A DNA stretch of 64,000 nt from a virus. The stretch is taken from positions 6,442 to 70,441 of IMG/VR virus record IMGVR_UViG_3300037512_001384; one strand, 5' to 3'. Below the pieces are notes generated by a model that saw nothing but the letters and a program-made list of their open reading frames with translations, had not been told where the DNA came from and did not search any database. The translations under genes were made by a program, and so were the position numbers. Positions 6,151-27,510 of this stretch are shown here, piece by piece (the stretch's first letter is position 1; the number at the start of each line of letters is the position of its first letter).

Positions 6151-6688
6151 TCAAGACATACTTTATAGGCATATTATATTTCTTAGAGCCATGCATTATG
6201 GTATCCTTGCGACCGTCATAACCGGTTGCTATCTCCTGTATGGCTTCATGGTCAAAGAAATACTTCTCCTGTTTTGACATCAGGAATATATATTCATGTG
6301 CCTTCGTACAGCGGTCTTTGATGCTTTCGGGCTGCGGATTCAGCTTATGCCAGATGATGTCATTTCTCAGACGGAATCCGATACGGTCTCTTAGTGCGAA
6401 AGCCGCCATCCAGGGAATACCGATAAGACTTTTTGCATTGTCATAGCTATCTCCGAGGTTCAGCCAGAGCGTTCCTTCCGGTTTAAGAACGCGAAACACT
6501 TCCGTGAATACTTCGGTGAGTCTGTCGATATACTCTTCTGGTGACTTCTCCAGACCTATCTGACCGTCAATACCGTAGTCTCGCAGATTGAAATATGGCG
6601 GTGAGGTGACACAGCAATCAACGCAGTTGTCAGGAAGGCTTTTCATTCCGGTGAGGCAGTCTTCATTGAAAACTTTGTTGATTTCCAT
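6041..6688 (-). CDS. N-terminal half of a beta-class N4/N6 DNA methyltransferase (SPPY motif IV), separated from its 3' half by inversion
   Basis: MEINKVFNEDCL..DCCVTSPPYFNLRDY..LWLNLGDSY..NDIIWHK..HEYIFLMSK. Methyltransferase similarity stops at the repeat (6163-6175). The rest of the ORF is read-through antisense to the primase-helicase gene. Confidence 0.75.
   Translation of the reverse strand: MEINKVFNEDCLTGMKSLPDNCVDCCVTSPPYFNLRDYGIDGQIGLEKSPEEYIDRLTEVFTEVFRVLKPEGTLWLNLGDSYDNAKSLIGIPWMAAFALRDRIGFRLRNDIIWHKLNPQPESIKDRCTKAHEYIFLMSKQEKYFFDHEAIQEIATGYDGRKDTIMHGSKKYNMPIKYVLIRTGYLRLSAHQRVFHYVVFPAAPLQNPIPADSAAS
6163..6175. repeat. left inverted repeat of invertible segment 1 (TTATAGGCATATT)
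   Basis: Perfect reverse complement of 6692-6704. An imperfect extension brings it to about 20 bp. Confidence 0.9.
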
Positions 6689-6691
6689 TAC

Positions 6692-6704
6692 AATATGCCT
6701 ATAA
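6692..6704. repeat. right inverted repeat of invertible segment 1 (AATATGCCTATAA)
   Basis: Reverse complement of 6163-6175. Contains the ATG (6695) of the downstream ORF, in the same codon phase as the N-half. Confidence 0.9.
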
Positions 6705-7108
6705 TGCCTTCGGGTAACAGGCAGACGATGGCTACGCACGGGCATCAGCGATGGAGGTTCAAGAACCTTCAGGATGATGGACAGCAACCCAATTCGATGC
6801 ATATCAGACGTGCTGCCGGATTGCCGGACCAGCAATATCCGGTCAGAAACAAAAGGGATGTATGGAGTGTAGCCACCAAACCTGAGAAGGCGGCTCATTT
6901 CGCTGTCTATCCCGAAGAGCTCATCAGACCTTGCATCCTTGCCGGATGTCCGAAAGGTGGCCTGGTGCTTGACCCGTTTATGGGAAGTGGCACGACAGCC
7001 AGGGTCGCCCGTAAGTACAATCGCAACTTCATAGGGTATGAACTGAACCCTGAATATATCAAGATTATCAATCAGAAGACGGTGGTGACACCGGACTTGT
7101 TCTCATAG
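6695..7108 (+). CDS. C-terminal half of the same beta-class DNA methyltransferase (AdoMet-binding motif I)
   Basis: RNKRDVWSVATKP..AHFAVYPEELIRPCI..VLDPFMGSGTTARVA..GYELNPEY. No motif IV on this strand. Confidence 0.75.
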   Translation: MPIMPSGNRQTMATHGHQRWRFKNLQDDGQQPNSMHIRRAAGLPDQQYPVRNKRDVWSVATKPEKAAHFAVYPEELIRPCILAGCPKGGLVLDPFMGSGTTARVARKYNRNFIGYELNPEYIKIINQKTVVTPDLFS

Positions 7109-7114
7109 AAACCT

Positions 7115-7141
7115 ATTGTTTAACTAAATATCTATAGTATG
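7115..7141 (+). promoter_or_regulatory. plus-strand copy of the conserved leader motif (ATTGTTTAACTAAATATCTATAGTATG)
   Basis: Same motif and ATG spacing as the roughly 30 minus-strand cassettes at 27-45 kb. Confidence 0.5.
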
Positions 7142-7648
7142 GCAGGTTTAAGAAGTAGAAGTGGTTTTTGGATGGAAGCAACCATCGAGATCACAGAGAC
7201 AACCCCCAAAGGGTTGCCAAAGACAGTGAGAGAACGCTACACAGTTGAGGCAGCGTCATTCATTGACGGTGAGGAGAGAATCCGCAAGGAGCTCAACTAC
7301 TCCAACCGTCCTATCAAGACCGTGAGCGGTATGTTGCGCCCCAAGTACGGTGAGATTTGTTTCTCTGATGACGCAGCAGCTGAGAACTGGTACAAGGTTA
7401 AGGTTGATATGAAGGAGGAGGTAGAGGTAAGAACCCGTAAGGGTGGCACCCGCACCAAGACCAAGACCGTATCGCACTATTATCTTGTCCAGTCTGACTC
7501 CAACGAGAACGCTCGCAAGGCAATCGGTGACGAGATTTACAAGGGTTCAAACGCCGACTATGAGATAGCCGATGTCGTGAAGACCCGTATCCTGGATGTG
7601 CTGGAGAAGGATAAGCATCTGAAGAGTGCTGAGAAAAAGGAAAATTAA
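7139..7648 (+). CDS. DUF4494-like protein
   Basis: FWMEATIEI..YTVEAASFIDGEERI..WYKVKVDM..YYLVQSDS fits the Bacteroidota DUF4494 pattern. The start is supported by the leader motif. Confidence 0.55.
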   Translation: MAGLRSRSGFWMEATIEITETTPKGLPKTVRERYTVEAASFIDGEERIRKELNYSNRPIKTVSGMLRPKYGEICFSDDAAAENWYKVKVDMKEEVEVRTRKGGTRTKTKTVSHYYLVQSDSNENARKAIGDEIYKGSNADYEIADVVKTRILDVLEKDKHLKSAEKKEN

Positions 7649-7669
7649 CCGTACACCATTTTGTTGTTG

Positions 7670-7712
7670 GAAAGCCCTATGCCGTGCCATTGCGGTGTAG
7701 GGCTTTCTTTTT
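7670..7712 (+). terminator. rho-independent terminator
   Basis: GAAAGCCCTA..TAGGGCTTTC stem followed by TTTTT. Confidence 0.8.
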
Positions 7713-7722
7713 GAGAGAAGGG

Positions 7723-8202
7723 ATGAATACGTATGTAATTACTTTATCACAGACTTTCCCTGTGACACATAAACGCGCCGGTGAGCCCACCGACTTCGAG
7801 CATAAGTTCACCGCCGCGACCCACAAGTGGCTTGACCATTGGTGGAAGCGTCATACCATTCGTGCCAATTACGAATTATGGCGTAAGCGCTTTGAAAAGA
7901 TAGATGCCGGTCAAGCCCAGCTGTCTATACGTCAGTGGTCAGGTAAGCCTTACGCTTCCAAACAGGTTCAACTGGCTGTGCTCACCAAAGCTGACGGCAT
8001 CGGAATACAGAAACTGCAGTTCGATGTTGACAGGGATGGTATGCATTCCTTGAACCTGATAGAGATTGACGGCAAATCCGTAAGCAAGGAGCTTCTGGCA
8101 TATAACGATGGGTTGAAAATTGAGGATTGGATGGAATGGTTCCGTCGGTATGACCTCTCCAAACCTCTGGCTGTAATTCATTTCACAAGCATCAGGTATT
8201 AA
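7723..8202 (+). CDS. hypothetical protein
   Basis: ORF trimmed to MNTYVITL, downstream of the terminator. Confidence 0.5.
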   Translation: MNTYVITLSQTFPVTHKRAGEPTDFEHKFTAATHKWLDHWWKRHTIRANYELWRKRFEKIDAGQAQLSIRQWSGKPYASKQVQLAVLTKADGIGIQKLQFDVDRDGMHSLNLIEIDGKSVSKELLAYNDGLKIEDWMEWFRRYDLSKPLAVIHFTSIRY

Positions 8203-8222
8203 CGATTATATCTGTCTGGGTT

Positions 8223-8681
8223 ATGCACAAACACAACTATTTCGTATCGGTTTTTGTTCACGGTAGGCATGTCAACTCGTATTTCAGCGAGGATCTTGAT
8301 GACCTCGTAACCATAAAGGTTATGAATGGTCCGGACTGTGAGCTGTCGATATTCGACATTAGCCGGTTTGTGCTTCTTACAGCCGAGCAGGTGGAGATAG
8401 AGATAGTCAAATCCAGGAACAGATGGAAGAAATCCCTGGAGAAACATATCGAAGAACCTCCTGAAGAGCCGATTGAGGAGGAGGTGGAGGAGAAACCGAA
8501 GAAGAGCTATGTATGGAAACGACCTGTGTTGTGCGTTGAGACCGGACAGGTATTCAAGTCCATACGTGAATGCTCGGATAAGGTTGGTATCCCATATATG
8601 ACAATAACCAATTGTATCAAGAACAAGAACGCCACGAGAGGCGTTCATTTTATTCAACTTGAAGAAGACGAGACGGAGTGA
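8223..8681 (+). CDS. hypothetical protein with C-terminal helix-turn-helix-like module
   Basis: VLCVETGQVFKSIRECSDKVGIPYMTITNCIKNK resembles small DNA-binding modules. The fully overlapping minus-strand ORF looks non-coding. Confidence 0.5.
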   Translation: MHKHNYFVSVFVHGRHVNSYFSEDLDDLVTIKVMNGPDCELSIFDISRFVLLTAEQVEIEIVKSRNRWKKSLEKHIEEPPEEPIEEEVEEKPKKSYVWKRPVLCVETGQVFKSIRECSDKVGIPYMTITNCIKNKNATRGVHFIQLEEDETE

Positions 8682-9118
8682 TGAGACAGAAAACGATAGT
8701 CTTTGCCGTCATAGCAATGACGTGTGCCGCATTCATAGTGCTGCTTGGCGAGGCATGGCCGTTGATCCCCTTCATCTTGGCCGTATGGTGCGCAGTCAGA
8801 TGCTTCAATATAGAGAACGACCATGAGCCCTTTGACCGGGTGATTGCCGCCATGAGTGAGGCGAGCGGATTGGATACAGACTCGCTTCTTAAGAACACCA
8901 ACAAAAGGGACATCGTGTCATGCCGTTATCTGCTGTTCCTCTTCCTGTATGACAAATGGGAGTGGACAACGGGGCAGATAGGTCGTGCGTTCGGACGCGA
9001 CCATTCGACCGTGACTTACGGCATCAAGAGAGCCCGCGACTTCCTGTCGTTGGCATCCTACAAGAAAGAACAAGACATCTATGCCAAATTCCTGGCACAG
9101 ATACACAATATGGAGTAA
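8678..9118 (+). CDS. membrane-anchored protein with DnaA domain-IV-like HTH
   Basis: N-terminal hydrophobic helices. C-terminal WTTGQIGRAFGRDHSTVTYGIKRARD resembles the DnaA C-terminal DNA-binding domain. Confidence 0.5.
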   Translation: MMRQKTIVFAVIAMTCAAFIVLLGEAWPLIPFILAVWCAVRCFNIENDHEPFDRVIAAMSEASGLDTDSLLKNTNKRDIVSCRYLLFLFLYDKWEWTTGQIGRAFGRDHSTVTYGIKRARDFLSLASYKKEQDIYAKFLAQIHNME

Positions 9119-9292
9119 GCTAACTGGCATTTCTTTTTTATTTGGTTTATCCGGTCCCGTATGCAGTGATGTATGCGCGGCGGGTCTGCAGACGATGTGG
9201 TGCGGAGGTTTCTGGATTCGTTAGTTACTTGGAAGTAAAGTCATCTGCAGCAAGCGGGGCGGTTTGACAGCCTCCCCGCTGACTATATGGTC

Positions 9293-9363
9293 GGTCGTAT
9301 GGCGTAATGGTAGCGCAACAGACTTTGGTTCTGTGTGTCCCGGTTCGATTCCAGGTACGACTA
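9293..9363 (+). tRNA. tRNA-Gln (anticodon UUG)
   Basis: Manual cloverleaf: acceptor GGTCGTA/TACGACT (G1-U72), anticodon stem ACAGA/TCTGT, loop CTTTGGT, T arm CCCGG-TTCGATT-CCAGG (one C-A mismatch). No encoded CCA. Confidence 0.8.
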
Positions 9364-9374
9364 CAAATTATTTC

Positions 9375-9464
9375 AGGGGAAATAAAACCTGAATCGGGGA
9401 AATTTTATCGCCCCAAAATGTGAGAGAAAGGCAATATTGGGAAATCAAAGGAAAATTTCCCCTG
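9375..9464. repeat. 10-bp inverted repeat CAGGGGAAAT / ATTTCCCCTG with internal GGGGAAAT-like copies, followed by a T-run
   Basis: Arms at 9375-9384 and 9455-9464. Related copies at 9395-9404 and 9438-9446. TTTTT at 9465-9469. Confidence 0.7.
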
Positions 9465-9498
9465 TTTTTCAGGTCAAACGGAACAACAAGAAAACAAC

Positions 9499-9909
9499 AT
9501 GATAGATAACCCTTATGACAGCAGAGACCCGCGTTTCGAGCCTGATCCCATACCGGTAGGTTTTATGAAGACGGTCATAGTCACCTTAAGCAAGGAGGTT
9601 AAACTTGAAACCACCGCCTATGAGGACCACATTGATTGTGACGGTAAAGGTTACTGCACTGAGATTGTCGGCGAGACCGATTGGGAACAGGTGTTCAAGG
9701 ATGAGCACAGGACCATACCGCAGCTTCTTGAACTGCTTGAGAAAGAGTGTGAGCGTAAGAAACAGGCGTTGGAGAGATACTTCGGTGTCCTGGAGTGCCA
9801 GGGTGAGAAACCCACAAAGGAGCTGCTGGATAAGAAGAGATACTGGGAGAGTGTCATTGAGGACTGCCGTAACTGGAAGGTTGACGAGATAGACATTGAT
9901 GATATTTGA
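9499..9909 (+). CDS. hypothetical protein
   Basis: ORF-track ORF in the rightward gene train. No motif recognised. Confidence 0.5.
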   Translation: MIDNPYDSRDPRFEPDPIPVGFMKTVIVTLSKEVKLETTAYEDHIDCDGKGYCTEIVGETDWEQVFKDEHRTIPQLLELLEKECERKKQALERYFGVLECQGEKPTKELLDKKRYWESVIEDCRNWKVDEIDIDDI

Positions 9910-9915
9910 TGACCT

Positions 9916-10176
9916 ATGGACGAGATTCAAAGAGAACAATTAAGAGCTGTTGAAATAGCCTTATGTTCCATTAACGGGTATGTAGCACGAGACAAAGACG
10001 GTTCACTCTGGTTTCATTACAAAGAACCCCATAAGGAGAATGACATTGAGGAAACATGGTGGGGAAGTAACGATAAAGCATTTGAGATATTTGACAGCGA
10101 CTTTCCTCAGTTCAAGGATTTGCGTTGGCCGCAAGAGCCGGTTAAGGTTCAATTAGCGATACAGTTGAGTCAATAG
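9916..10176 (+). CDS. hypothetical protein
   Basis: ORF-track ORF in the rightward gene train. Confidence 0.5.
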   Translation: MDEIQREQLRAVEIALCSINGYVARDKDGSLWFHYKEPHKENDIEETWWGSNDKAFEIFDSDFPQFKDLRWPQEPVKVQLAIQLSQ

Positions 10177-10178
10177 AT

Positions 10179-10403
10179 ATGGAACCAAAATACATAGATT
10201 TCGGGGTTGCACCTTATGCCCTGCCTGATGTCTGTGAGGCATTATACAACAACGGGATAACCAATGGATTCCTCACTGTCGAAGACGGCGATATTCATGT
10301 TAGATGGCAATATGACATCAACCGCAAATCCAAACATCACGCAAAAACAAACGTCGATGGCTGCAATGAACAATCAGAAAACAAAGGCAAGCAGGATTCC
10401 TGA
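10179..10403 (+). CDS. hypothetical protein
   Basis: ORF-track ORF starting 3 nt after the previous stop. Confidence 0.4.
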   Translation: MEPKYIDFGVAPYALPDVCEALYNNGITNGFLTVEDGDIHVRWQYDINRKSKHHAKTNVDGCNEQSENKGKQDS

Positions 10404-10806
10404 GCTGAACGTAACCAATGAAGTTCCCCCCAAGACCGTCATCAAACACATGGCGCGTGAGAGGGGTAAACTTCTCGCCTATATCGATGAGCTTGAGGAA
10501 AAGCTCAAACGTAAGGACGAAGCCATTGCCGAGTTCAAGAAATGGCAAGCCAAGGTCGCAGATTACAAATGGCACTATTGGCTGAGCGAAGGCATCAAGC
10601 TCATGGAGGAACCGCCAGACAAGACCATGCTTAACGCGCTGAAGCATCTGTTGGGTTGTCACCGGATCTTCGACGAGTGGCAGAAAAAGGTGGTCAACGC
10701 ATGGGAGCAATACAAGAAAGCCAAGGAGAAGTTTAAGAACGCTCTGGAGGCTCAGAATAAAACTGAAAAGAAAGAAACATCACAAGATGGAAAAGATACC
10801 GTTTAA
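10357..10806 (+). CDS. hypothetical coiled-coil protein (start uncertain)
   Basis: ORF 10264-10806 trimmed to an internal ATG. Alternative starts at 10312 or 10450. Confidence 0.4.
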   Translation: MAAMNNQKTKASRIPELNVTNEVPPKTVIKHMARERGKLLAYIDELEEKLKRKDEAIAEFKKWQAKVADYKWHYWLSEGIKLMEEPPDKTMLNALKHLLGCHRIFDEWQKKVVNAWEQYKKAKEKFKNALEAQNKTEKKETSQDGKDTV

Positions 10807-11374
10807 CCCCAAATTCAGACCGCAGATTGAGTCCGGCGAATACCGTGTCGAGACCCGTTGCGGCTATCCGGTGCAGATTGTCTGTTGGAATCTCCGAGAC
10901 ACCAAGCATGAGGATGATACTCATAAACGCACCATACTTGGTCTTATAGACTGTGGCGACGGAACATTCGGACATGAGGTATTCAACTCAGAAGGATTAT
11001 ACATGCCGATTGCACAATCCAATATGGATTTGTTTGTCGTGACGGAAAATGTGCAACTGACGAAGTTCGAGAGCCGCTTATGTGAGATTCTTGATTACGC
11101 AATGCGTCACCCTGAAGATTCTCCAAATGCGATAATCTCTGTTGTCAAGCAGAAACTTTCTCCTGAGCTGATGGATTTAGCCCGAAAGGAGATAAAGACA
11201 GACGGTCCGAAATGGAGGATGGCTAAAGCCGGTACACGATTCGATAGCGATGCTGTTATTGTCGGCATAGGTGACGATAAGGACCCAAGGCTTGTAAGAT
11301 GTGCCGTGAATGACTGTTGGTATATCTTGGTGAAGGACCTGGTAGAGAAACTTACAAGTGAATTATCATTATGA
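10787..11374 (+). CDS. hypothetical protein
   Basis: ORF-track ORF. Confidence 0.5.
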   Translation: MEKIPFNPKFRPQIESGEYRVETRCGYPVQIVCWNLRDTKHEDDTHKRTILGLIDCGDGTFGHEVFNSEGLYMPIAQSNMDLFVVTENVQLTKFESRLCEILDYAMRHPEDSPNAIISVVKQKLSPELMDLARKEIKTDGPKWRMAKAGTRFDSDAVIVGIGDDKDPRLVRCAVNDCWYILVKDLVEKLTSELSL

Positions 11375-11952: not shown

Positions 11953-11964
11953 CATTAAACAGCA

Positions 11965-13554: not shown

Positions 13555-14334
13555 ATGGGTACAAAAATAGAGTGGACCAACAAGGTATGGAATCCCGTAT
13601 CGGGCTGCACTAAGGTCAGTGAGGCTTGCCAGAACTGTTATGCTGAAGTGATGGCAAGACGTCTGAGCGGAATGCCTGGCAGCAAGGAGAAATACAAGGA
13701 TGGATTCAAGGTGACGATTCACCCGGAAAGCCTCTATGAGCCTTACAAGTGGAAGAAACCATGCATGGTCTTCGTTTGCTCTATGGGCGACCTGTTCCAT
13801 GATGATGTTCCTATCCAGTTCATTGACGAGGTGATGAACGTGATCAGCGAGAATCCGCAGCACACGTTCCAAATTCTCACCAAGCGGGCTGGAGCGATGT
13901 ATTCATATTTTCAACATGAGGATGTTCCGAAGAACGCATGGCTCGGTGTCACCTGCGAGAGTGCCAAACATTATGACAGGGTGAGTCTTCTCCGTGATAT
14001 TAACCGTGTGAGTCTTCTCACCGATTTCCATAGCAAGACTGTCAAGTTCCTGTCATGCGAGCCTCTGTTGGGTGACATGGCGGATATAAACCTTGACGGT
14101 ATTGATTGGGTGATTACAGGAGGCGAAAGCGGTTCGCGAGCCCGAAGGACACCGATTGAATGGTTTCGGAATCTTCGTGACAGGTGTGTCGAGACCGGCA
14201 CGCCTTTCTTTTTCAAGCAATGGGGTGCGTTCGGCCCGGATGGTATCAAACGCAGCAAATATCTGAACGGTTCTGTACTGGACGGTCAGCAGTGGAAACA
14301 GATGCCACTTATAAAGCAAGACGATAATGATTGA
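13555..14334 (+). CDS. phage Gp37/Gp68 family protein (DUF5131)
   Basis: IEWTNKVWNPVSGCTKVSEACQNCYAEVMARRL N-terminal signature and GGESG block. Contains an in-frame 27-bp duplication (RVSLLRDIN/RVSLLTDFH). Confidence 0.7.
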   Translation: MGTKIEWTNKVWNPVSGCTKVSEACQNCYAEVMARRLSGMPGSKEKYKDGFKVTIHPESLYEPYKWKKPCMVFVCSMGDLFHDDVPIQFIDEVMNVISENPQHTFQILTKRAGAMYSYFQHEDVPKNAWLGVTCESAKHYDRVSLLRDINRVSLLTDFHSKTVKFLSCEPLLGDMADINLDGIDWVITGGESGSRARRTPIEWFRNLRDRCVETGTPFFFKQWGAFGPDGIKRSKYLNGSVLDGQQWKQMPLIKQDDND

Positions 14335-16063
14335 CGAATTAGACAAGCAACTGCAGTATATCAAGACTTGCCCTCACTATACGGTCTTTGCCATAGACCT
14401 TTTCTGTGGCGCGGGCGGTGAAACGACAGGTATTGAACTGGCTATGGTGGATGGTAAGAAATGCGCCAAGGTCATAGCCTGCGTCAACCATGATCCGAAC
14501 GCTATTGCATCTCATGCTGCGAATCACCAATCCGTTCTGCATTATATCGAAGATATACGTACCCTCAACTTAGGCGGATTGGAGCAGTTGACGGAAGCTG
14601 TCCGGACTTTTCATCCAGGTTCATATATCCTGTTGCACGCTTCACTTGAATGTACAAACTTCTCCAAGGCCAAGGGTGGTCAACCACGTGACGCAGACTC
14701 CCGAACTCTGGCTGAGCATCTATTCCGATACATTGAGGCTATCAGACCGGATTATATCCAGATAGAGAATGTGGAAGAGTTTATGTGCTGGGGAGAGCTC
14801 GACAAGAACGGCAAGCCTTTGAGTAAAGACCGGGGTAGCAGTTATGTTCGTTGGGTGAACAACGTCAAACATTATGGGTATGATTTTGACTACAGGTTGC
14901 TTAACGCAGCTGATTTTGGCGCATACACAAGCCGTAAGCGCTTTTTCGGTCTTTTCGCCCGTCATGGATTACCGCTTGTCTTCCCGCATCAGACCTATGC
15001 GAAGAACGGTGACGAAGGTGGGCTTTTCCATCAGTACCGGAAATGGAAACCTGTACGTGAGGTGTTAGACCTGCAGGATGAAGGGGAAAGCATCTTTGGT
15101 AGAAAGAAACCGTTATGTGAAGCTACATTGGAGCGCATCTATGCAGGATTGGTGAAGTTTGTGGCAGGAGGTAAGCAGAAATGTGACGCCTGGATCCTAA
15201 AGTACAACTCCATGAATAAAGATAGAAGCCATAATGCACCCTCTATCGACGAGCCCTGTCCTACTGTTGCTGTGCAAAACAGATTAGGTTTATGCAAGTG
15301 TAATTTCCTGAGTCTGTATTATGGTGGCGCAGAGCATAACCAATCTATTGAAGAGCCAGCGGGTACTGTGACAACCAAAGACCATCATGCTTTCCTTTCG
15401 GTTCATTATGGACACGGTTGTAATAGAGATATTGACAAGCCTTCACCTACTGTGACATGCCAGGACAGAATTGAGCTTATTTCAAGCCAGTTCTTTGCCA
15501 ATGAGTATAGTGGCGGAGGACAGCTTTCTGATATAGAGAAACCTTCACCCGCTATACTTACCAAACCGAAACAGCATTTAGTCACGGCTAAACGCTGGCT
15601 GGCGAATACCAACTTCAAGAATGTGGGTAGCAGCATAGATTCTCCAGCACCGGTAGTGACAGCCAACTATAAGTACCACTATCTGATGAATCCGCAGTTT
15701 GCATCTGCAGGAGGTTCCATAGACAAGCCCTGTTTCACATTGATAGCCCGGATGGACAAGATGCCTCCGTATCTGATAAGCACAGAGAGCGGAGAAGTCG
15801 GAATCGCTGTATATGATTCGGATTCATCAATGACGTGCAAGGTCAAAGAGTTCATGGCTGCATACGGTATAGTGGATATCAAGATGCGTATGCTGAATGT
15901 GGGTGAACTTAAACGTATCATGGGCTTCCCTGATGATTATGTGCTTATCGGCACTCAGGCAGAGCAGAAGAAATATATAGGCAATGCCGTGGAGGTAAAT
16001 ATGTCCCGTATGTTATGTGAAGCACTTGCTACTAAATTAAACCTCACAAGACAAGCAATATGA
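14327..16063 (+). CDS. DNA (cytosine-5) methyltransferase with an expanded, repetitive target-recognition region
   Basis: Motif I DLFCGAGG, catalytic-region variant ECTNFS, IENVEEF, RKRFFG, GNAVEV. Six I(D/E)xPxPT-like repeats between motifs VIII and IX. Confidence 0.85.
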   Translation: MIDELDKQLQYIKTCPHYTVFAIDLFCGAGGETTGIELAMVDGKKCAKVIACVNHDPNAIASHAANHQSVLHYIEDIRTLNLGGLEQLTEAVRTFHPGSYILLHASLECTNFSKAKGGQPRDADSRTLAEHLFRYIEAIRPDYIQIENVEEFMCWGELDKNGKPLSKDRGSSYVRWVNNVKHYGYDFDYRLLNAADFGAYTSRKRFFGLFARHGLPLVFPHQTYAKNGDEGGLFHQYRKWKPVREVLDLQDEGESIFGRKKPLCEATLERIYAGLVKFVAGGKQKCDAWILKYNSMNKDRSHNAPSIDEPCPTVAVQNRLGLCKCNFLSLYYGGAEHNQSIEEPAGTVTTKDHHAFLSVHYGHGCNRDIDKPSPTVTCQDRIELISSQFFANEYSGGGQLSDIEKPSPAILTKPKQHLVTAKRWLANTNFKNVGSSIDSPAPVVTANYKYHYLMNPQFASAGGSIDKPCFTLIARMDKMPPYLISTESGEVGIAVYDSDSSMTCKVKEFMAAYGIVDIKMRMLNVGELKRIMGFPDDYVLIGTQAEQKKYIGNAVEVNMSRMLCEALATKLNLTRQAI

Positions 16064-20736: not shown

Positions 20737-20770
20737 CATATACGGCCCGGAGAAAAACAATATCATTCTA

Positions 20771-21745
20771 ATGTATCGAAAAAAGAAACCGGCAGGTTTT
20801 GATGAACGTCTTCAGTGGTCTATCAATTTGTTGAAGAAAGCAGAAAAACTCGCTTTGCAATATGATCCTGATGACGGATTCTATTTAGCCTTCTCAGCAG
20901 GCAAGGATTCCCAAGCATTATATCACATCGCCAAACTTGCAGGTGTCAAGTTTCAGGCTCACATGAACTTTACGAGTATTGACCCTCCAGAGGTTATTCG
21001 CTTCTGTCGCGAACATTATCCTGATGTCATAACTCATGCACCCGAGGACAGCATCTACAATATTGCCGTAAACGGGAAATATCTGCTGCCTTCACGTATC
21101 ATTAGATGGTGCTGTGCCATTCTTAAAGAGACTGGAGGTGCCGGTACGGTCTGTCTTACAGGTGTACGCAGACAGGAAAGCATCAGACGCTCCAAACGTA
21201 ACAGCGTTGAAGTTAGCAACAGCTCCTTCTCCGGGGACCTCGATGCCTTCGAGACGTGGAGAAAAGAGAAGATTGCCAAGAAGATTCAGCATCTCAACCA
21301 GGACCAATTCAGTGAACAAGACGAGGAACAAATCAGATGTATCGGCGGCAAGGATAAAATCATTGTCAATCCGATAATAGACTGGTCTGAGTCTGATGTC
21401 TGGTATTTTCTCAACGAAGTTGTGAAAGTGCCTCACTGCTCGCTATATGACAGAGGATATAAACGTATCGGATGTATCTGCTGTCCTATGGCAAATTATA
21501 AGCAGAAACTCATCGAATTGGCGGATTACCCCCATGTCAAGCGCAACTGGATAAATGCCATCAAGCGGATACGCGAGCAGGGTATCGCAAAGAATATCCT
21601 GACAGAGAACTATTTCGGCAATGGTACGGAAGACGAGATATGTGAGAACATCTTCCAATGGTGGATCAGCGGGAAATCCTATGACGAATGGTATGCTGAG
21701 ACATTCCTTCAGCAAAGGATTGATTTTGGAGAGGAACAACAATAG
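20771..21745 (+). CDS. PAPS-reductase-family (PP-loop ATPase) protein
   Basis: PP-loop FSAGKDS, C-terminal IGCICCP cysteine cluster. ORF trimmed to MYRKKKP. Confidence 0.8.
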   Translation: MYRKKKPAGFDERLQWSINLLKKAEKLALQYDPDDGFYLAFSAGKDSQALYHIAKLAGVKFQAHMNFTSIDPPEVIRFCREHYPDVITHAPEDSIYNIAVNGKYLLPSRIIRWCCAILKETGGAGTVCLTGVRRQESIRRSKRNSVEVSNSSFSGDLDAFETWRKEKIAKKIQHLNQDQFSEQDEEQIRCIGGKDKIIVNPIIDWSESDVWYFLNEVVKVPHCSLYDRGYKRIGCICCPMANYKQKLIELADYPHVKRNWINAIKRIREQGIAKNILTENYFGNGTEDEICENIFQWWISGKSYDEWYAETFLQQRIDFGEEQQ

Positions 21746-21772
21746 AATGATATTGTAACCGGCAGTAGCAAA

Positions 21773-21789
21773 CAATATGTGGGTATTGT
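21773..21789. repeat. left inverted repeat of invertible segment 2 (CAATATGTGGGTATTGT)
   Basis: 16 of 17 bp reverse-complementary to 22468-22484. The 13-bp perfect core is ATGTGGGTATTGT. Confidence 0.85.
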
Positions 21790-21798
21790 ATTTCCATT

Positions 21799-22455
21799 TC
21801 AGAATAATTCGAGTTGTGTGATTGTGGTGCCGTCTTGCAATTTGGTCTCTCCGAGGCATTCCTCCCTGAACCGCTCTTCCTGGAGGTCATAGTATTCTTT
21901 GCTTATCTCACAAGCGTAGAAGTCAAACCCCATCTTATAGGCAGCGATGCGGCTTGAACCACTTCCAAGATGGCTGTCGAATATCTTGTCACCCGGCTTT
22001 GCGAAGGTCTTTAGCAGATAGGCGTATAGTTCTATTGGTTTACAGGTGGGATGCCATACAACCTTGTCGATGTGACCGCCTCGGTTGGATATTGTGATCA
22101 GTTTGGCTGGTTTATCAAATGACGTCCAGGCAAACTCACATTGACTGAAGTTCTCCCATACCTGCTGCTTATCCCAGATGACAAAGCAACGGCAAGGAGG
22201 TAAGGGAAAGTAGTTACCTCCCCAGATAATCTGGTTCTTGCTGACGCGGAATAACTCCTTCCAATATTCTGTGGGGGGTGCAACATCCCAACTCATATCA
22301 TGGCGGTTGAGGGTGCGATTCTTAAGTTTCCCGCTCCCTTGAACAGAGGATTTCTTGAGCTGATACGGCGGGTCCACTATCGCAAGGTCAAAGAATGCGT
22401 CTGGAAGCGTCTTCATATAGGCTAAGCAGTCTGTATTGAACACTTCGCTAACCAT
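21799..22455 (-). CDS. N6-adenine-type DNA methyltransferase (DPPY), complete gene in leftward orientation
   Basis: DLAIVDPPYQL, WGGNYF, FDSHLGSGSSRIAA. It is the only complete leftward gene in the first 26.6 kb. Confidence 0.85.
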   Translation of the reverse strand: MVSEVFNTDCLAYMKTLPDAFFDLAIVDPPYQLKKSSVQGSGKLKNRTLNRHDMSWDVAPPTEYWKELFRVSKNQIIWGGNYFPLPPCRCFVIWDKQQVWENFSQCEFAWTSFDKPAKLITISNRGGHIDKVVWHPTCKPIELYAYLLKTFAKPGDKIFDSHLGSGSSRIAAYKMGFDFYACEISKEYYDLQEERFREECLGETKLQDGTTITQLELF

Positions 22456-22467
22456 TGTCTTTGGGTA

Positions 22468-22484
22468 ACAATACCCACATAATG
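22468..22484. repeat. right inverted repeat of invertible segment 2 (ACAATACCCACATAATG)
   Basis: Pairs with 21773-21789. Ends 2 nt before the ATG of the next methyltransferase gene. Confidence 0.85.
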
Positions 22485-22486
22485 TA

Positions 22487-23245
22487 ATGCTTCATGGGGA
22501 TTGCCTTGAACTTATGCGGGATATTCCGGATAAGAGTATCGACATGATTCTGAGTGATCCGCCTTATGGAACGCTAAACAAGAGCAACCCGGATGCGCAA
22601 TGGGATAAGGAAGTTGACCTTAAGGCATTATGGAGGCAATACAAGCGCATCATCAAGCCCAACGGTGTCATTCTTCTGTTCGGTCAAGGTGTCTTTGGAG
22701 CCAAGCTGATTATGAGTAACCCGAAATGGTTCAGATATGACTTCGTTTGGGATAAGGTCAGGAAATCCAATTTCCTTAACTGTAAGAAGATGCCGATGCG
22801 TCAGCATGAGCAGATATTCGTGTTCTACGGCAAGCCGCCTCTGTATAACCCTCAGATGGTCCGGTGCAAGGAGTCTCAGAAGAACCACAGCAGAGGCACG
22901 ACAGGACGAGAGCAGAAGACCTCCTGTTACGGCAAATACAACGTGACGGAAACCATAGATACCGATTACAAGTATCCCGGAACTATCGTTCGGTTTCCCA
23001 AAGGGCACAGTAAGGAAGACTGGAAGCACGGGACAACCAAACCGGTCAATCTCTTGCGTTATCTCATCAGGACATATTCCAAAGAGGGTGATGTCATCCT
23101 TGACAATTTTGCAGGATCCGGCAATACACTGATTGCCGCCATCAAAGAGAAGAGAGACTGGATAGGTATGGAGATATCGGATAAGTTCTATGCTTTGGCT
23201 CAGCAACGTATAAATGACGAACTAAGAGAACCAACTTTATTCTGA
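22487..23245 (+). CDS. N6-adenine-type DNA methyltransferase (DPPY)
   Basis: DMILSDPPYGT, YDFVWDK, LDNFAGSGNTLIAA. Confidence 0.85.
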   Translation: MLHGDCLELMRDIPDKSIDMILSDPPYGTLNKSNPDAQWDKEVDLKALWRQYKRIIKPNGVILLFGQGVFGAKLIMSNPKWFRYDFVWDKVRKSNFLNCKKMPMRQHEQIFVFYGKPPLYNPQMVRCKESQKNHSRGTTGREQKTSCYGKYNVTETIDTDYKYPGTIVRFPKGHSKEDWKHGTTKPVNLLRYLIRTYSKEGDVILDNFAGSGNTLIAAIKEKRDWIGMEISDKFYALAQQRINDELREPTLF

Positions 23246-23246
23246 A

Positions 23247-23459
23247 ATGAGCAAACAACAACGAGGTGGCGTAATCCATTTTCGCGACCGTGACAGGGAT
23301 GCATGGCCGCAATCTGATTTCAGGGATGTATATGTCAAGCCTAATATCAAGCTGCCTGAAGCACCCAAGAATCACATGATTTTAACTTGTAACCCTTCCG
23401 GGCTAAATATTTTCCATAAGAATTTCATCAACGACAACAATGAAAGAGATTCCCGATGA
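23247..23459 (+). CDS. hypothetical protein
   Basis: ORF-track ORF. Confidence 0.4.
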   Translation: MSKQQRGGVIHFRDRDRDAWPQSDFRDVYVKPNIKLPEAPKNHMILTCNPSGLNIFHKNFINDNNERDSR

Positions 23460-23715
23460 GCTGTACAACCAATTAGACTACTTGGGGTTGATTCCCAACG
23501 AAGTCCGTTCAACCAATGTAGGCAAGAGTGATTACTCCAAGCATTTCATCCAGCCCTGGACAATATGGTTGGATGCCAATCTCAACCCGTGGGATGCGGA
23601 TATAGTCAAGCGCATATTGAGGACAAAAGAAGGTGATTCCCGTATGATGGACTATGAGAAAATCATCCATATATGCGAGGAGCGTATCAGACAGCTTAAG
23701 TTCACTGCGAAATGA
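23440..23715 (+). CDS. DUF3310-like protein
   Basis: GKSDYSKHFIQPW..LNPWDADIVKRILR pattern. Confidence 0.55.
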   Translation: MKEIPDELYNQLDYLGLIPNEVRSTNVGKSDYSKHFIQPWTIWLDANLNPWDADIVKRILRTKEGDSRMMDYEKIIHICEERIRQLKFTAK

Positions 23716-24377
23716 AAAAGGTTGTAATCAAAACCGTGATGGAATATGAAGGTATGGAGTGGACATCACGGGTTGTGGACTTTGGTATTAGCCTTATGGT
23801 GGCGGCGGCTATCAACGAAGTGATTTGCGCCTTTATCATGGTGAAGGAATCCGACCTGTTCCGTCGTTCCGTCAAGCATAATGCGACAAGGGCTGTCAAG
23901 GAGGCTGAAGCCAAGCAACGTGAGTTGAAGGAATCGGCCGGGGATGGAGAGCTGTTCGCGTCTTACTCCGATGCAGTCATAGACAAGGCGCGTAACGACA
24001 TAACATTGCTGCAGCTTGCCATCAAGCAGGCGCTTGACACGCATAAAGTCAAACATTCAGATATCCTTGCTCGCGCTGAATGTGCGAGGGTATTATTGGA
24101 TATGTCAGCGAAGCAGTTCGCCAATACCATCAGGACTGCCGAATGCAGGTATCTGAAAAACTTCTATGAGCACTTCAAGGAGTTTGACATGAAGCATCTG
24201 CATGATGCATGGAAGATGGTTTGTACGGAACTGTTCGTGGGTTATAACGTTGACCTCAACACACCGACGGTGAAGGGGCTGTTCGAGTCTATGCTTAACA
24301 AGTTCTCCAACGGAGAGTACATATATGGTTGTCTGGACCAGGCGTATGAGGAATATCCCGAGAAACGACCTAATTAA
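23712..24377 (+). CDS. hypothetical protein
   Basis: Overlapping start and stop. Confidence 0.5.
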   Translation: MKKVVIKTVMEYEGMEWTSRVVDFGISLMVAAAINEVICAFIMVKESDLFRRSVKHNATRAVKEAEAKQRELKESAGDGELFASYSDAVIDKARNDITLLQLAIKQALDTHKVKHSDILARAECARVLLDMSAKQFANTIRTAECRYLKNFYEHFKEFDMKHLHDAWKMVCTELFVGYNVDLNTPTVKGLFESMLNKFSNGEYIYGCLDQAYEEYPEKRPN

Positions 24378-24391
24378 ACATCAAAATAACT

Positions 24392-25162
24392 ATGGGAAAA
24401 TTTATCATTTATTTCAAGGAGAACAGAAACGGGCATTGCGCTTATCGTTTCGTCAAGAGTTATCGTAAGGGTGGTTTCTTAAGGAAAGAGCGTATTGAAT
24501 ATACGCTGGACTTGGTTCAGGCTATGGACTTTCCGGATATGGAAGTCGTAGTCAAAGCCCACAAGCGTTTGTCTGCAGATTATCCCGATGCGGCTGTGAA
24601 CTATATGGATGTCGAGGAGTTCAGGGACAGATTCGCACTGCATCGGTTCTGGCTGATATGCAGGCATGACAATAACGGTCAACCAATCGAGTATTACAGC
24701 GGCACCGGTAAGGGACATTTCTCCTGGACGAACGACATCACTAATGCCCTGTTGGGTCTGGATGCGAAGACGCAGGAAGAAACTTTCAGGCGTATCCGTC
24801 TGACCGGTGACAGGATTACCCTCATCCCTGTCTATCTCGACCTGATCAACGACCTTCTGAACCCCAACTTCATCATCACCTGTACCAGCAAGACCGGTGA
24901 ACAGAAGACCAAGTTCTTCGCCCGCAGGGAGGGTAACAGACTGAGGTTGGTTGAGACATCCGATGCCGCCAAGAAATTCAACTACCGCGAAGGACTGGAG
25001 GCGTTCGAGACTCTGAAGATAAACAACAAGAACTTCTTATATGCCATGCTTCCTGCATTCAAGGAGAATGTGTCATATAAGAATCTGGAAGCCTATTGCA
25101 AGGCAAACAACCCGTCTCGCGCCCTGCAGATGGAGATTAAGCTGGACGCTCTGAATAAATGA
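24392..25162 (+). CDS. hypothetical protein
   Basis: ORF-track ORF. Confidence 0.5.
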   Translation: MGKFIIYFKENRNGHCAYRFVKSYRKGGFLRKERIEYTLDLVQAMDFPDMEVVVKAHKRLSADYPDAAVNYMDVEEFRDRFALHRFWLICRHDNNGQPIEYYSGTGKGHFSWTNDITNALLGLDAKTQEETFRRIRLTGDRITLIPVYLDLINDLLNPNFIITCTSKTGEQKTKFFARREGNRLRLVETSDAAKKFNYREGLEAFETLKINNKNFLYAMLPAFKENVSYKNLEAYCKANNPSRALQMEIKLDALNK

Positions 25163-25165
25163 CGT

Positions 25166-25426
25166 ATGGACCAGACAAAAGCGCAGAAACTCGTTGATGA
25201 CCTTATGGAACTCATCAACAAGGAGAAGCTGGAAGGTTCTGAACGTCTCGCGGTCGTTTCGATGTTCTTCTCCACGGAGATAGCATGTGCGTTCTTGTCC
25301 GGCGTGATAGATGACACGCTGCCTACAGACCAGGTTCTGGACGGTGCGTTTGAAATCATACGTAAGGAGGTGAAGGATGCCATCTCACATGGCGGAGTGG
25401 CAGTGGATATTAAGGGAGATTGTTGA
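25166..25426 (+). CDS. hypothetical protein
   Basis: ORF-track ORF. Confidence 0.45.
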   Translation: MDQTKAQKLVDDLMELINKEKLEGSERLAVVSMFFSTEIACAFLSGVIDDTLPTDQVLDGAFEIIRKEVKDAISHGGVAVDIKGDC

Positions 25427-25442
25427 CGTGAAACATAAGACT

Positions 25443-25667
25443 ATGACTGAGCAGGAGGGACAGGAGATCCTGGACCGTATATCCGAGTTGTTCAACGAAC
25501 ATGAACTCACACTCGGTGACGCCTTTCGGGTACTGTCCTCCATGTTCATCAGTCTCACGAATGACGTTCAGAAGAGATATCCGAAAGAGAATGTCATTGG
25601 CGAAGCGGTCAAGTATCTGAATATCATCCGATATAACGTACTACCTCCTAAAGACAGACCGAACTGA
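25443..25667 (+). CDS. hypothetical protein (start uncertain)
   Basis: ORF 25377-25667 trimmed to the first ATG after the upstream stop. Confidence 0.4.
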   Translation: MTEQEGQEILDRISELFNEHELTLGDAFRVLSSMFISLTNDVQKRYPKENVIGEAVKYLNIIRYNVLPPKDRPN

Positions 25668-25668
25668 T

Positions 25669-26619
25669 ATGGCACGATTGAAGAAAGCAGAGAGGGAACG
25701 TAGGGAGAAAGAGAGGATACACCGCGAGACTGACTGTATCAGACGTAAGGTCGTGGGTGATTTCTTTATCAGCTTCTCACGTCATATACGTCCTTGGCTC
25801 CTTGGTATGGCGGAACGGTATATCGAGAGAGGTATATACCCGATGCTGGCGCAGTCTATCCTGCCTTCCTATTACGAGGACAAGAATGACAAGGAGATAG
25901 CTGCTTTCGCGTCCCTGTTGCTGGACCCCGAATCAGAGTTTGACAGGATCCAGGCGTTCCGCGAGATGATGGGGGAGCATCCGTTTCTTTGGTTTGGTAA
26001 AAGGGATTATGTCATACTCTCTACCGGTGCCAATCAGAACAAACTGATAGGCGGCGTCCCGGGATGGAAGATAGCCAGGCTGATGGAGAAGCTATGGCAG
26101 CGAGGACGTATGGACGCTCAGGAAGGTGACGGTACATACTATGTCCTTACACCTATCATGGTGACACTGAATGTGAAGTACCTCAACTGGCTTCCGGAGG
26201 ATGCCGTACTTGATATGATAGGTGACTGCATTCCCAAGAAAGAGAGTCTTTATCGAATAAGGCTCGCATTGCTCGTTCTTTTGACGCCTGACGGCATCGG
26301 TCAGGATGTGTGGTCAGTTGAACCGGAACGTCTGAGATGTCCACTCTCAACCAAAATAACACCGTTCCTTGAAACGTGGTTTCCCGACTATACGAGATAC
26401 GGTACAAGGGAAGAGGCTATTGAGCTGTTCGACATGCCTCATCATTATGATTTCTTCTATGCTTATCTGGCTTACATGGAGATAGGCAAAAGAAAACCCC
26501 GCGAGTGCAGCAGGCTCGCCACTACATACCGACGATGGTATGACCGTGGCGATGATAAATACAGACCTGCTGTCTGGCGGGAAATAATGGACAGGGTGGA
26601 ACAACAAGACCTTGCTTAG
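25669..26619 (+). CDS. hypothetical protein
   Basis: 316-aa ORF, last gene of the rightward block. Confidence 0.5.
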   Translation: MARLKKAERERREKERIHRETDCIRRKVVGDFFISFSRHIRPWLLGMAERYIERGIYPMLAQSILPSYYEDKNDKEIAAFASLLLDPESEFDRIQAFREMMGEHPFLWFGKRDYVILSTGANQNKLIGGVPGWKIARLMEKLWQRGRMDAQEGDGTYYVLTPIMVTLNVKYLNWLPEDAVLDMIGDCIPKKESLYRIRLALLVLLTPDGIGQDVWSVEPERLRCPLSTKITPFLETWFPDYTRYGTREEAIELFDMPHHYDFFYAYLAYMEIGKRKPRECSRLATTYRRWYDRGDDKYRPAVWREIMDRVEQQDLA

Positions 26620-26627
26620 TCTTATCG

Positions 26628-26666
26628 TGTGGGGAGTAGCTGTCATGCTGCTCCCCACTTTTTTTT
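26628..26666 (+). terminator. rho-independent terminator between convergent blocks
   Basis: GTGGGGAG..CTCCCCAC stem followed by eight T. Confidence 0.8.
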
Positions 26667-26667
26667 G

Positions 26668-27510
26668 TTATGTGCCGGTGAAGAACCCCATACCGCTCAA
26701 GTCGAGATTATCGGCATCCACGCAGATGTAACGTGATGTCATGTTCTCGTTCTTGTTGTGGTTCATCAGGGCGCAGATGACGGCACGCGGCACACCGCGC
26801 AGAGTCAGGTTGGTGGCGAAGGATCTCCGGGCCGTATGACTCCCGACATACTCGTACTTGGGTCGCGTCTGCGTCTTACCGTGATAGAATATCTTGGTTT
26901 CCTGACTGATACCGCATCGGCGACAGATACGTTTGATGACATCGTTATAAACGGCTCTGTTATGTTCGCCGGTGGGCTTGTACTGCAGGTAACGCATGAG
27001 GTTGCGATGTATCGGTATGGAGCTCTCCACCTTCGTCTTCTGACTCACATAACACAGTCTGCCGTCAATGATGTTATGCTCGGTGAATGACTTGACATCG
27101 GACGTCCTGGCACCGCAGTAGCACTCGATGAGGAAAGCCGCCTTGATGTCCCGTTCCGTGTCATTATGGGGAACATATCGTTCGATACGCTCTATCTCCT
27201 CTTCCGTGAGATAGACGTTCTGTGACGGCACTCTCTTAGCCTTCAATTCCTTCCCGGGATTCTTACAGGGGAATAAATTCTCATCCAGATAAGCGGAAAG
27301 GAAAGCCTTCAATACGGCGAGATAGGTACATGCCGTATTACCGGCTACGTTGTCACAGATATTATCCCTCATCTCGGACAGGTTAAGCGTCGTGAGGTCG
27401 CTCCACTGCACCTCCTGAACGCCTATCGCATCACGCATATACCGAAGGATATGCGCATAGCTGGGTTGTCTTCTGACAAACTCCTGCTCAAAACTTAAAA
27501 TTCCGTTCAT
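26668..27510 (-). CDS. tyrosine recombinase (phage integrase family)
   Basis: CGARTSDV (Arg I), HTARRSFATNL (HxxR), MNHN.. and the terminal ..MTSRYICVD (catalytic Tyr). Confidence 0.85.
   Translation of the reverse strand: MNGILSFEQEFVRRQPSYAHILRYMRDAIGVQEVQWSDLTTLNLSEMRDNICDNVAGNTACTYLAVLKAFLSAYLDENLFPCKNPGKELKAKRVPSQNVYLTEEEIERIERYVPHNDTERDIKAAFLIECYCGARTSDVKSFTEHNIIDGRLCYVSQKTKVESSIPIHRNLMRYLQYKPTGEHNRAVYNDVIKRICRRCGISQETKIFYHGKTQTRPKYEYVGSHTARRSFATNLTLRGVPRAVICALMNHNKNENMTSRYICVDADNLDLSGMGFFTGT

Follow-up and report, generated by a model that had tools for sequence, protein, structure and literature searches.

The DNA examined here, called the window below, is a stretch of 64,000 nucleotides from the IMG/VR virus record IMGVR_UViG_3300037512_001384 (positions 6,442 to 70,441), and the whole of it is phage DNA. 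We propose, with a probability of about 0.75, that this phage carries an array of independent binary inversion switches for DNA-modification genes. Three segments are concerned (Table 1): L1 (6160-6707), which flips the first 170 codons of a methyltransferase gene (methyltransferase 1); P (20757-21756), which flips the whole gene of a PAPS-reductase-like enzyme; and M2 (21772-22485), which flips the whole gene of a second, 218-aa methyltransferase. A first-pass annotation, made from the sequence alone, had proposed two switchable methyltransferase loci and up to four epigenetic states. Both loci do occur in both orientations; the invertible segments however are three and not two—P was overlooked because its gene points rightward in the window—and three switches give up to eight states. 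Similarly, of the two leftward methyltransferase genes described at that time, the one at the second locus is a whole gene, but the first is a single gene split intragenically.

The opposite orientations are read directly in public contigs. One of them (L024, ERZ27257203) is 99.99-100% identical to positions 6035-13793 of the window save that 6163-6704 is reversed, and a strain 95-96% identical (L025) is likewise reversed at L1. Another contig of the same sample as L024 (L027) is 99.98% identical to 13653-31006 save two reversals, 20757-21756 and 21772-22485. Alternative orientations are thus seen at both methyltransferase loci, L1 in L024 and M2 in L027, and the junctions of the inverted contigs fall inside the repeats. 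The point differences in these comparisons amount to just 1-3 per 7-17 kb, and yet there are three inversions. The window's own state is common to L026, L028 and L225-L227; altogether two combinations are seen, the window's state in four samples and the state with all three segments flipped in ERZ27257203. Certainly inverted repeats can confuse assemblers, and between the start of L024 and the end of the shared core there is exactly one k-mer length (141 nt), as might be expected if the reversals were mis-joins at the repeats. We nevertheless hold such an artefact for practically negligible: the 18-bp repeats are far shorter than both the k-mer of 141 and the reads, independent ENA and Logan assemblies agree within each state, the flipped state restores a perfect reading frame, and the same architecture is met in IMG/VR contigs and metagenome-assembled genomes (MAGs) of other studies.

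All six segment boundaries are copies of one 18-bp site, ACAWTA-N6-TAWTGT, whose hexamer arms are mutually reverse-complementary and whose 6-bp spacer is asymmetric. The spacers of partner sites are exact reverse complements (TAGGCA/TGCCTA for L1, TCATTC/GAATGA for P, TGTGGG/CCCACA for M2), and the three pairs are mutually different, though the right site of P and the left site of M2 are just 15 bp apart. A scan of the window allowing one mismatch to the motif gives six sites, five of which are segment boundaries; the sixth boundary carries two mismatches. A three-mismatch “pair” at 296/1065, with poor arms and no inversion seen there, was discarded as chance. The inverted repeats that the first-pass annotation had seen around both methyltransferase sequences are confirmed (6163-6178/6689-6704, 15/16 identical, and 21772-21789/22468-22485, 17/18), as is the likeness between the arms of the two loci, which is better described as this common 18-bp site; the four arm mismatches then counted fall in or beside the spacer. 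Imperfect repeats of 16-18 nt are by themselves unremarkable, many being listed within 2 kb; it is the rarity of the motif, the reverse-complementary partner spacers and the opposite orientations with junctions inside the repeats that make the bracketing repeats more than chance.

Further features of the sites bear on the exchange itself. Where partner arms differ by a single base, the differences of the outer arms stay with the flank and those of the inner arms move with the segment, as exchange inside the spacer predicts. In the pooled half-sites a G is frequent three bases outside the hexamer (position -3), and the inner arms are more strictly conserved than the outer ones. Palindromic arms around an asymmetric spacer are the layout of simple tyrosine-recombinase sites (lox, FRT, dif), in which strand exchange requires spacer identity. 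Since exchange needs matching spacers, the different spacers should insulate neighbouring cassettes from each other. The site family common to both methyltransferase loci argues for a single recombinase.

Methyltransferase 1, a predicted beta-class N6/N4 methyltransferase, is split in the window. The open reading frame (ORF) called at 6041..6898 on the minus strand has its true start at the ATG at 6688, from which its 170 codons run to the left repeat. In this OFF state the N-terminal fragment is continued by 45 unrelated residues on the wrong strand, giving a truncated fusion of 215 aa, and the remaining C-terminal fragment is without the catalytic motif. Inverting 6179-6688 in silico joins the two halves in frame into a 309-aa methyltransferase. 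A public protein (P0001) matches this product at 100% identity over the full length, another (P0002) is 99% identical, and thousands of full-length homologues are collinear with it. The right site encodes YNMPI (codons 171-175) in both orientations. Intact and split alleles are both present in near-identical genomes. L1 is thus an intragenic inverton by definition, one repeat lying inside the coding sequence and the inversion changing the protein from the intact enzyme to the fusion.

At P and M2 whole genes are turned. The gene of P matches PF01507, BrxP (1.7e-14) and phrog_424. Methyltransferase 2 lies between this rightward gene and the rightward gene of methyltransferase 3, and further gene calls agree with the first-pass annotation that the only leftward coding sequences of the first 26.6 kb are the two of methyltransferases. 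The cassettes are minimal: at M2 just 9 bp separate the end of the gene from one site, and 12 bp its start from the other. A scan for TAnnTTTG upstream of the M2 gene on the minus strand found no Bacteroidetes -7 motif or candidate promoter; scans for sigma-70-type promoters and terminators around the cassettes stayed at background level, with a tool that does not cover Bacteroidetes promoters. The tight gene packing against the operon, together with the missing TAnnTTTG motif, suggests that the antisense states of P and M2 would be silent (OFF).

Table 1. Features of the window; the strand cell is empty for recombination sites
Feature	Positions	Strand	Remarks
Early/replication block	1-26.6 kb	+	RecT, PD-(D/E)XK-FtsK fusion, primase-helicase, several DNA methyltransferases
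L1 left site, ACTTTA-TAGGCA-TATTAT	6160..6177		in the 37-bp gap 3' of the primase-helicase stop; junction of L024 in 6163-6175
Methyltransferase 1, 5' part (invertible, codons 1-170)	6179..6688	-	SPPY catalytic motif; split here (OFF)
Methyltransferase 1, 3' part (fixed, codons 171-309)	6689..7108	+	FMGSGTT S-adenosylmethionine (AdoMet)-binding motif; Pfam positions 113-220
L1 right site, ACAATA-TGCCTA-TAATGC	6690..6707		within the coding sequence
C5-cytosine methyltransferase, 578 aa (fixed)	14327..16063	+	in L170 a C5-methyltransferase is split by a like site pair
P left site, ACAATA-TCATTC-TAATGT	20757..20774		inner arm holds the ATG at 20771; junction of L027
PAPS-reductase/BrxP-like PP-loop enzyme, 324 aa (invertible whole gene)	20771..21745	+	runs with the operon here; inverted in L027
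P right site, ACAATA-GAATGA-TATTGT	21739..21756		overlaps the stop codon
M2 left site, ACAATA-TGTGGG-TATTGT	21772..21789		15 bp from the P right site
Methyltransferase 2, 218 aa (invertible whole gene)	21799..22455	-	DPPY and FDSHLGSGSS motifs; antisense to the operon; inverted in L027
M2 right site, ACAATA-CCCACA-TAATGT	22468..22485		1 bp before the start of methyltransferase 3
Methyltransferase 3, 252 aa (fixed)	22487..23245	+	no flanking sites; kept beside the cassette array in relatives
Tyrosine recombinase, 280 aa (candidate invertase)	26668..27510	-	PF00589; R134, K157, H224, R227, H250, Y260 intact
Leftward block	26.7-45.1 kb	-	opens with the tyrosine recombinase and the FtsK-like gene; includes ArdA
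FtsK/SpoIIIE-like translocase	27697..29115	-	adjoins the recombinase; pairing kept in all relatives examined
ArdA-type anti-restriction gene	39005-39997	-	part of the counter-restriction repertoire
Lone perfect site, ACAATA-CAATTA-TAATGT	45493..45510		AT-rich, iteron-bearing intergenic region, 521 bp upstream of the D5-like primase gene

The combination of repeats, methyltransferase and recombinase, for which the first-pass annotation proposed to look in related phages, is kept in phages having a homologue of the 280-aa recombinase. The survey took in 178 further loci, covering in each contig the query gene with some 10 kb of flank either way, and counted as pairs the inverted sites with complementary spacers. 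Eleven loci whose recombinase is 42-60% identical contain, over 203 kb, 66 sites with at most one mismatch (0.33/kb), 60 of them paired, and 33 inverted pairs. By contrast no pair was found at 15 loci with a recombinase at least 41% identical (265 kb, 7 such sites, 0.026/kb), at 60 LoVEphage-like loci with a recombinase 35-40% identical (894 kb, 12 sites, 0.013/kb) and at 79 loci with an M2-type methyltransferase homologue but no recombinase (1.45 Mb, 28 sites, 0.019/kb): in all, 154 control loci and about 2.6 Mb with zero inverted site pairs. L170, the one locus of an M2 homologue where the recombinase is present, has five pairs. Loci with a recombinase 35-64% identical and no ACAWTA motif were also searched generically for palindromic-arm site pairs of other types, and none was found.

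In the paired genomes the content of a cassette is always a single gene of DNA-modification type or the 5' fragment of one. The genes code for an M2-like methyltransferase, a PAPS-reductase/BrxP-like enzyme, a radical-SAM protein (phrog_9298) or a 197-aa NPPY methyltransferase; in L170 one cassette holds a 242-bp 5' fragment of a C5-methyltransferase, which is split like L1. No two cassettes of a genome share a spacer, and from genome to genome both spacers of a pair change together; for the PAPS cassette we find TTTTCC, TCTTTC, TTTTTC, TCTCAC, TTATTC and TCATTC, each with its exact complement. Orthologous cassettes are found in both orientations. The orthologues of methyltransferase 1 (65-80% protein identity) are split at the same codon in the IMG/VR contigs L007, L008 and L010, and intact in L001. 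In L001, L007 and L010 their sites are ACATTA-N6-TAATGT, with spacers unlike those of the window and matched between partners (CAGGAA/TTCCTG; TAGGAA/TTCCTA). The split orthologue of L008 has no matching site pair; one site (2669-2690) apparently has a 7-bp spacer, CAGGAAT, against 6 bp in its partner, and this allele may be locked OFF.

Some of these arrays are of a more complex build. In L040 (16038-16109) three tandem left sites of the M2 cassette, with spacer TCAGTG and a spacing of 27 bp, face a single right site. The M2-type cassette of L058 (6913-7680) and L059 (10973-11737) lies in two nested site pairs of different spacers, TGAAGG outside and TTCGTG or TTTGTG inside, and an orphan CCTTCA site stands at the same place in L039. 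Adjacent M2-type and PAPS-type cassettes are in opposite states in 8 of 11 genomes (the window state, L027, L039, L040, L057-L059, L061, L063, L064 and L170), a sample too small to judge chance.

It might be argued that the orientations are fixed strain differences, left by rare historical inversions between short repeats, with no active switch. The single orientation of each assembly, with the window's state in four samples and the opposite one in only one, would fit this explanation. It is however very improbable, as three separate inversions distinguish genomes with 1-3 single-nucleotide differences per 7-17 kb, and repeats of 16-18 bp are too short for efficient homologous recombination. 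Moreover the exchange maps to the spacer, arms and spacers are both maintained, partner spacers co-vary across phages of 42-60% recombinase identity, and both orientations are scattered among orthologous cassettes. Two exact-pattern scans of metagenomes of the Joint Genome Institute (JGI) for orientation-independent junction sequences gave nothing, and both states were not found in one JGI sample. For reversibility within a clone, the start of L024 at a k-mer boundary is at most a hint.

Programmed inversion being retained, the 280-aa tyrosine recombinase is likely the invertase, because it co-occurs with the site pairs and because the nature of the sites suits it. Its catalytic residues are invariant in 28 homologues. 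The AlphaFold model (pLDDT, the predicted local distance difference test, 87.5) has two domains, core-binding and catalytic, and no arm-binding domain; Foldseek matches it to lambda Int (residues 75-356), XerA, XerH, the Tn1549 integrase, IntI and Cre. The best NCBIfam matches are far under their cut-offs: XerA, 37.9 bits for 220; XerD, 26.9 for 329.6; XerC, 23.6 for 335. As the first-pass annotation stated, it is the single recombinase of the window, the only gene of the Phage_integrase family; no serine recombinase or resolvase-family domain appears among the genes called in the window and in its flanks of about 9-10 kb. A 316-aa ORF without family match, at 25669-26619 (+), is convergent with the recombinase gene and stands at the same place in the relatives that were looked at (27-42% identity); its product might assist the recombinase as an accessory factor.

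The recombinase had also been suggested to act as both integrase and invertase. It need not be both: a canonical 378-aa integrase is encoded just outside, about 3.9-5.0 kb left of the window start (L035, 4414-5550), between the endolysin/lysis block and an HTH_17 (Xis-like) gene, left of the early genes, and is probably the true integrase of the phage. Two such enzymes in one phage have precedents: LoVEphage is reported with two integrases (PMC8525569), and the cultured relative BI-TP1 has a small recombinase beside a ParA-like ATPase plus a 379-aa integrase beside a repressor. An IMG/VR search with the 378-aa integrase returned one long contig of the recombinase set (3300021255_000140), such a single-protein search reaching close relatives only.

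The inversions could then be programmed but owed to this second tyrosine recombinase, some 4-5 kb left of the window, or to a host Bacteroidales invertase, while the 280-aa enzyme would only resolve multimers or partition the genome with its FtsK-like partner. Several relatives that retain the small recombinase without nearby cassettes, and homologues 38% identical in LoVEphage-like phages without such site pairs, go in this direction. We find it unlikely. Simple palindromic-arm sites of 18-24 bp fit two-domain enzymes of the Cre/Xer type rather than arm-binding integrases. Site pairs were seen only at loci with a homologue at least 42% identical, and none of the 79 M2-type methyltransferase loci without recombinase has them. 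Finally, a lone site of the same family, near a putative origin and far from the integrase gene, is kept with the small recombinase even without nearby cassettes.

Of 12 relatives, 8 likewise have a lone site of this family, 400-715 bp upstream of their primase gene (9 of 13 genomes with the window counted), and two of these eight are contigs with the recombinase in which no cassette lies within 10 kb of it; the sequence flanking the site is not conserved among relatives. No partner for the lone site of the window was found in about 9-10 kb on either side of the window, and an IMG/VR scan for the site with the same spacer gave 33 single, apparently unrelated matches. In the window it stands between a very AT-rich palindromic stretch (45200-45350) and five AATGWACCAAA copies (45862-45981) located just upstream of the D5-like primase gene, a region which is probably a replication origin. 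The lone site is a candidate for the native (resolution) site of the recombinase, which itself would probably be a housekeeping resolvase co-opted as invertase. That the enzyme is kept without cassettes also indicates that inversion is not its only task and that it probably serves a core function.

The following mechanism may be proposed. Each switch would be a short segment between two inverted site copies, in whose spacer the tyrosine recombinase exchanges strands so that the segment flips, presumably reversibly within a clone; the spacer being private to each segment, neighbouring sites would not cross-react and each segment would flip alone. At L1 a flip would join or separate the two halves of methyltransferase 1, leaving either the intact 309-aa enzyme or a split inactive gene, whereas at P and M2 it would turn a whole, tightly packed gene with the long rightward operon or against it, expressed in one case and silent in the other. 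A lysogen or a phage population could thereby contain up to eight combinations of active modification enzymes and yield differently modified virion DNA. The ancestral task of the recombinase was probably the resolution of genome multimers with the adjacent FtsK-like translocase, at a single site near the putative origin; inverted copies of this origin-side site, with private spacers, might later have been recruited around modification genes.

The benefit could be a hedge between restriction of unmodified DNA and modification-dependent restriction. A counter-restriction role of the switches is plausible, since ArdA and two fixed methyltransferases are likewise encoded by the phage, and the hedging rationale gains plausibility from the slippage-based switching of the glucosyltransferase gene, also a DNA-modification gene, of T2, for which a 2025 preprint (10.1101/2025.10.21.683753) provides a precedent. 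Effects on the methylome of the lysogen itself are an equally open possibility. In this case the switch would be real but its main benefit would lie in limiting the cost or toxicity of host methylation by the prophage, or in creating variants of host expression, as a prophage-borne phasevarion. The phage is temperate by its gene content, and bacterial phase-variable methyltransferases altering host expression are well known (PMC7672463, PMC11741434); on the other hand ArdA and the two fixed methyltransferases make up a counter-defence repertoire, and among the cassettes of relatives are those of radical-SAM and BrxP-like enzymes, for which no regulatory role is known. We regard this alternative, which is compatible with the inversion switches proposed above, as possible rather than probable. 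In its widest form our proposal would be that temperate Bacteroidales phages of about 100 kb have turned a Cre/Xer-like resolvase into a natural “FLEx” array, in which single-gene cassettes with orthogonal spacers, for N6/N4 and C5 methyltransferases, BrxP-like PP-loop enzymes and radical-SAM enzymes, toggle independently and give 2^n virion types that hedge against restriction; for this joint claim we see the chances as about even.

Several points weigh against the switches as we propose them. The different orientations come from different samples, and each assembly shows one orientation only. The assignment of the catalyst, drawn from co-occurrence and from the logic of the sites, leaves room for the 378-aa integrase or for host recombinases, and the co-occurrence of recombinase and site pairs could itself partly reflect phage lineage: in at least seven relatives that keep both recombinase and FtsK-like gene, no site pair lies within 10 kb (L037/L056, L055, L060, L065, L129, L262), and some of those lacking cassettes carry the same modification genes in fixed form. 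The OFF character of antisense whole-gene cassettes is deduced from packing and from an absent motif. The enzymatic activity of the switched methyltransferases, hence the methylation outcome, is a prediction, and the PAPS-reductase-like gene could be an auxiliary gene of sulfur metabolism instead of a DNA-modification enzyme.

The phage belongs to those of gut Bacteroidales and has a genome of roughly 100 kb; a 107-kb ENA contig (ERZ27256849, k141_4620388) has 20.7 kb in common with the window at 100% identity. At the DNA level, a megablast of positions 5000-24000 gave no match among cultured and deposited phages. The nearest cultured or sequenced relatives are LoVEphage and BI-TP1, with a recombinase identity of just 38%, and Bacteroidales MAGs contain related contigs. 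The integrase, the Xis-like HTH protein and relatives on MAG contigs indicate a temperate phage. Beyond the AT-rich intergenic region come the genes of the D5-like primase, portal, terminase and capsid; a GC shift at about 46 kb, considered as a prophage-host junction, was rejected, the portal, terminase, capsid and primase genes lying beyond it.

Other observations can be added on the neighbouring genes. A DUF5131 gene (13555-14334, +), similar to “radical SAM mobile pair protein A”, overlaps the start of the C5-methyltransferase gene; among the candidate-defence models of PADLOC it matches PDC-M30B and PDC-M41B (1e-94 to 1e-97). The phage has two FtsK/SpoIIIE-like ATPases, at 571-2658 (+) and 27697-29115 (-), the former fused to a PD-(D/E)XK nuclease domain and adjoining RecT. 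In the large terminase ORF (55360-58152, -; 930 aa) a Hom_end domain at residues 283-345 precedes the Terminase_6N domain, so that the gene probably contains an intein. About 2.4-9.6 kb right of the window end (L032, 12467-19735), a 2422-aa ORF without Pfam match follows the head genes; in L033, a near-identical contig of another sample, two genes (1419 and 984 aa) are called in its place.

If these switches are confirmed, phages, and not just bacteria, would vary their own epigenome by programmed DNA inversion, and the conflict between phage and host restriction would gain a phage-side variable that is heritable yet reversible. This could explain the erratic host range or plating efficiency of gut phages, and also why many methyltransferase genes of phages look antisense or “broken” in assembled metagenomes. 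Wherever ACAWTA-N6-TAWTGT flanks a split methyltransferase ORF or a lone antisense gene, one would then see in it the state of a switch rather than a pseudogene or a faulty annotation. The 280-aa recombinase, with its sites of 18-24 bp and its apparently orthogonal natural spacers, would also be an attractive compact kit for multiplexed switches in Bacteroidales.

Among known systems, Cre/loxP and the heterospecific lox/FRT design called “FLEx” share with the one described here a two-domain tyrosine recombinase and palindromic arms around an asymmetric spacer; there too inverted sites give inversion and unlike spacers do not cross-react, and here a lone site may serve genome resolution. However loxP (34 bp) has 13-bp arms and an 8-bp spacer, against arms of about 6-9 bp and a 6-bp spacer here, no sequence relationship to Cre is detectable beyond the fold, and, compared with the engineered FLEx, the array is natural and the orthogonality of its spacers presumed. 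The likeness to XerC/D-dif with FtsK, and to the single-Xer systems (XerH, XerS, XerA), lies in the small two-domain recombinase beside an FtsK-like translocase, the 6-bp central region and the one conserved site near the replication region. The differences are the scores far below the family cut-offs, arms shorter than the 11-bp arms of dif, the phage origin of the enzyme, and the extra inverted site copies which would drive inversions.

In R64-type shufflons (Rci/sfx) one tyrosine recombinase also faces many inverted sites clustered in a few kb. But shufflon sites share their spacer and cross-recombine, scrambling the segments and swapping the C-termini of PilV, whereas here, in every genome, each cassette has spacers of its own and forms a self-contained unit, a whole gene or a 5' fragment. 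As in Mu Gin/G, P1 Cin/C and p15B Min, a phage recombinase would flip a phage segment and produce a mixed progeny, a form of bet-hedging. Gin, Cin and Min are serine invertases which work with an enhancer and Fis and switch tail-fibre genes; here there is no serine recombinase and the targets are DNA-modification genes. In the literature searched, phage inversion is cited for host range only, with phage Mu.

The epigenetic invertons of bacterial hsdS genes, in phase-variable Type I restriction-modification systems with tyrosine recombinases, are known from S. pneumoniae and Bacteroides fragilis (PMC7672463, PMC7641763), and inverton-like switches from methyltransferases of gut bacteria (PMC11741434). 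There, and presumably here as well, inverted repeats and a tyrosine recombinase make the methylome heterogeneous in a clonal population, with several repeat pairs per locus. Those systems however are chromosomal, in bacteria, and exchange the specificity domains of hsdS or of Type IIG enzymes, whereas in the phage genome whole orphan enzymes would go on or off, through one simple site family with cassette-specific spacers. The phage has no hsdS, hsdM or hsdR gene, its targets being stand-alone beta-class N6/N4 methyltransferases and the PAPS-reductase-like gene.

L1 resembles the intragenic invertons of Chanin et al. (10.1101/2023.03.11.532203) in its repeat inside the coding sequence and in the altered protein. 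These invertons, and the gene-altering programmed inversions of Milman et al. (PMC9881135), among whose enriched target families are methylases, were described in bacterial genomes, and a term search of both papers gave no phage-borne methyltransferase case. At L1, moreover, one gene is assembled or broken, while in gene-altering inversions alternative modules are exchanged. The agt contingency locus of T2 (Gomez et al., 10.1101/2025.10.21.683753) is likewise a reversible switch of a phage DNA-modification gene, giving a mixed progeny as a hedge against defence, but it acts by polymerase slippage at simple repeats in a lytic coliphage and not by site-specific inversion. Long-read phage studies (PMC12823448, PMC11323893) do not report the present arrangement, and phage-borne invertible modification cassettes are not described in the literature searched. 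Thus the class of mechanism is known; what is new is the phage setting, the array of single-gene cassettes, their insulation by private spacers and the link to a resolvase-like module.

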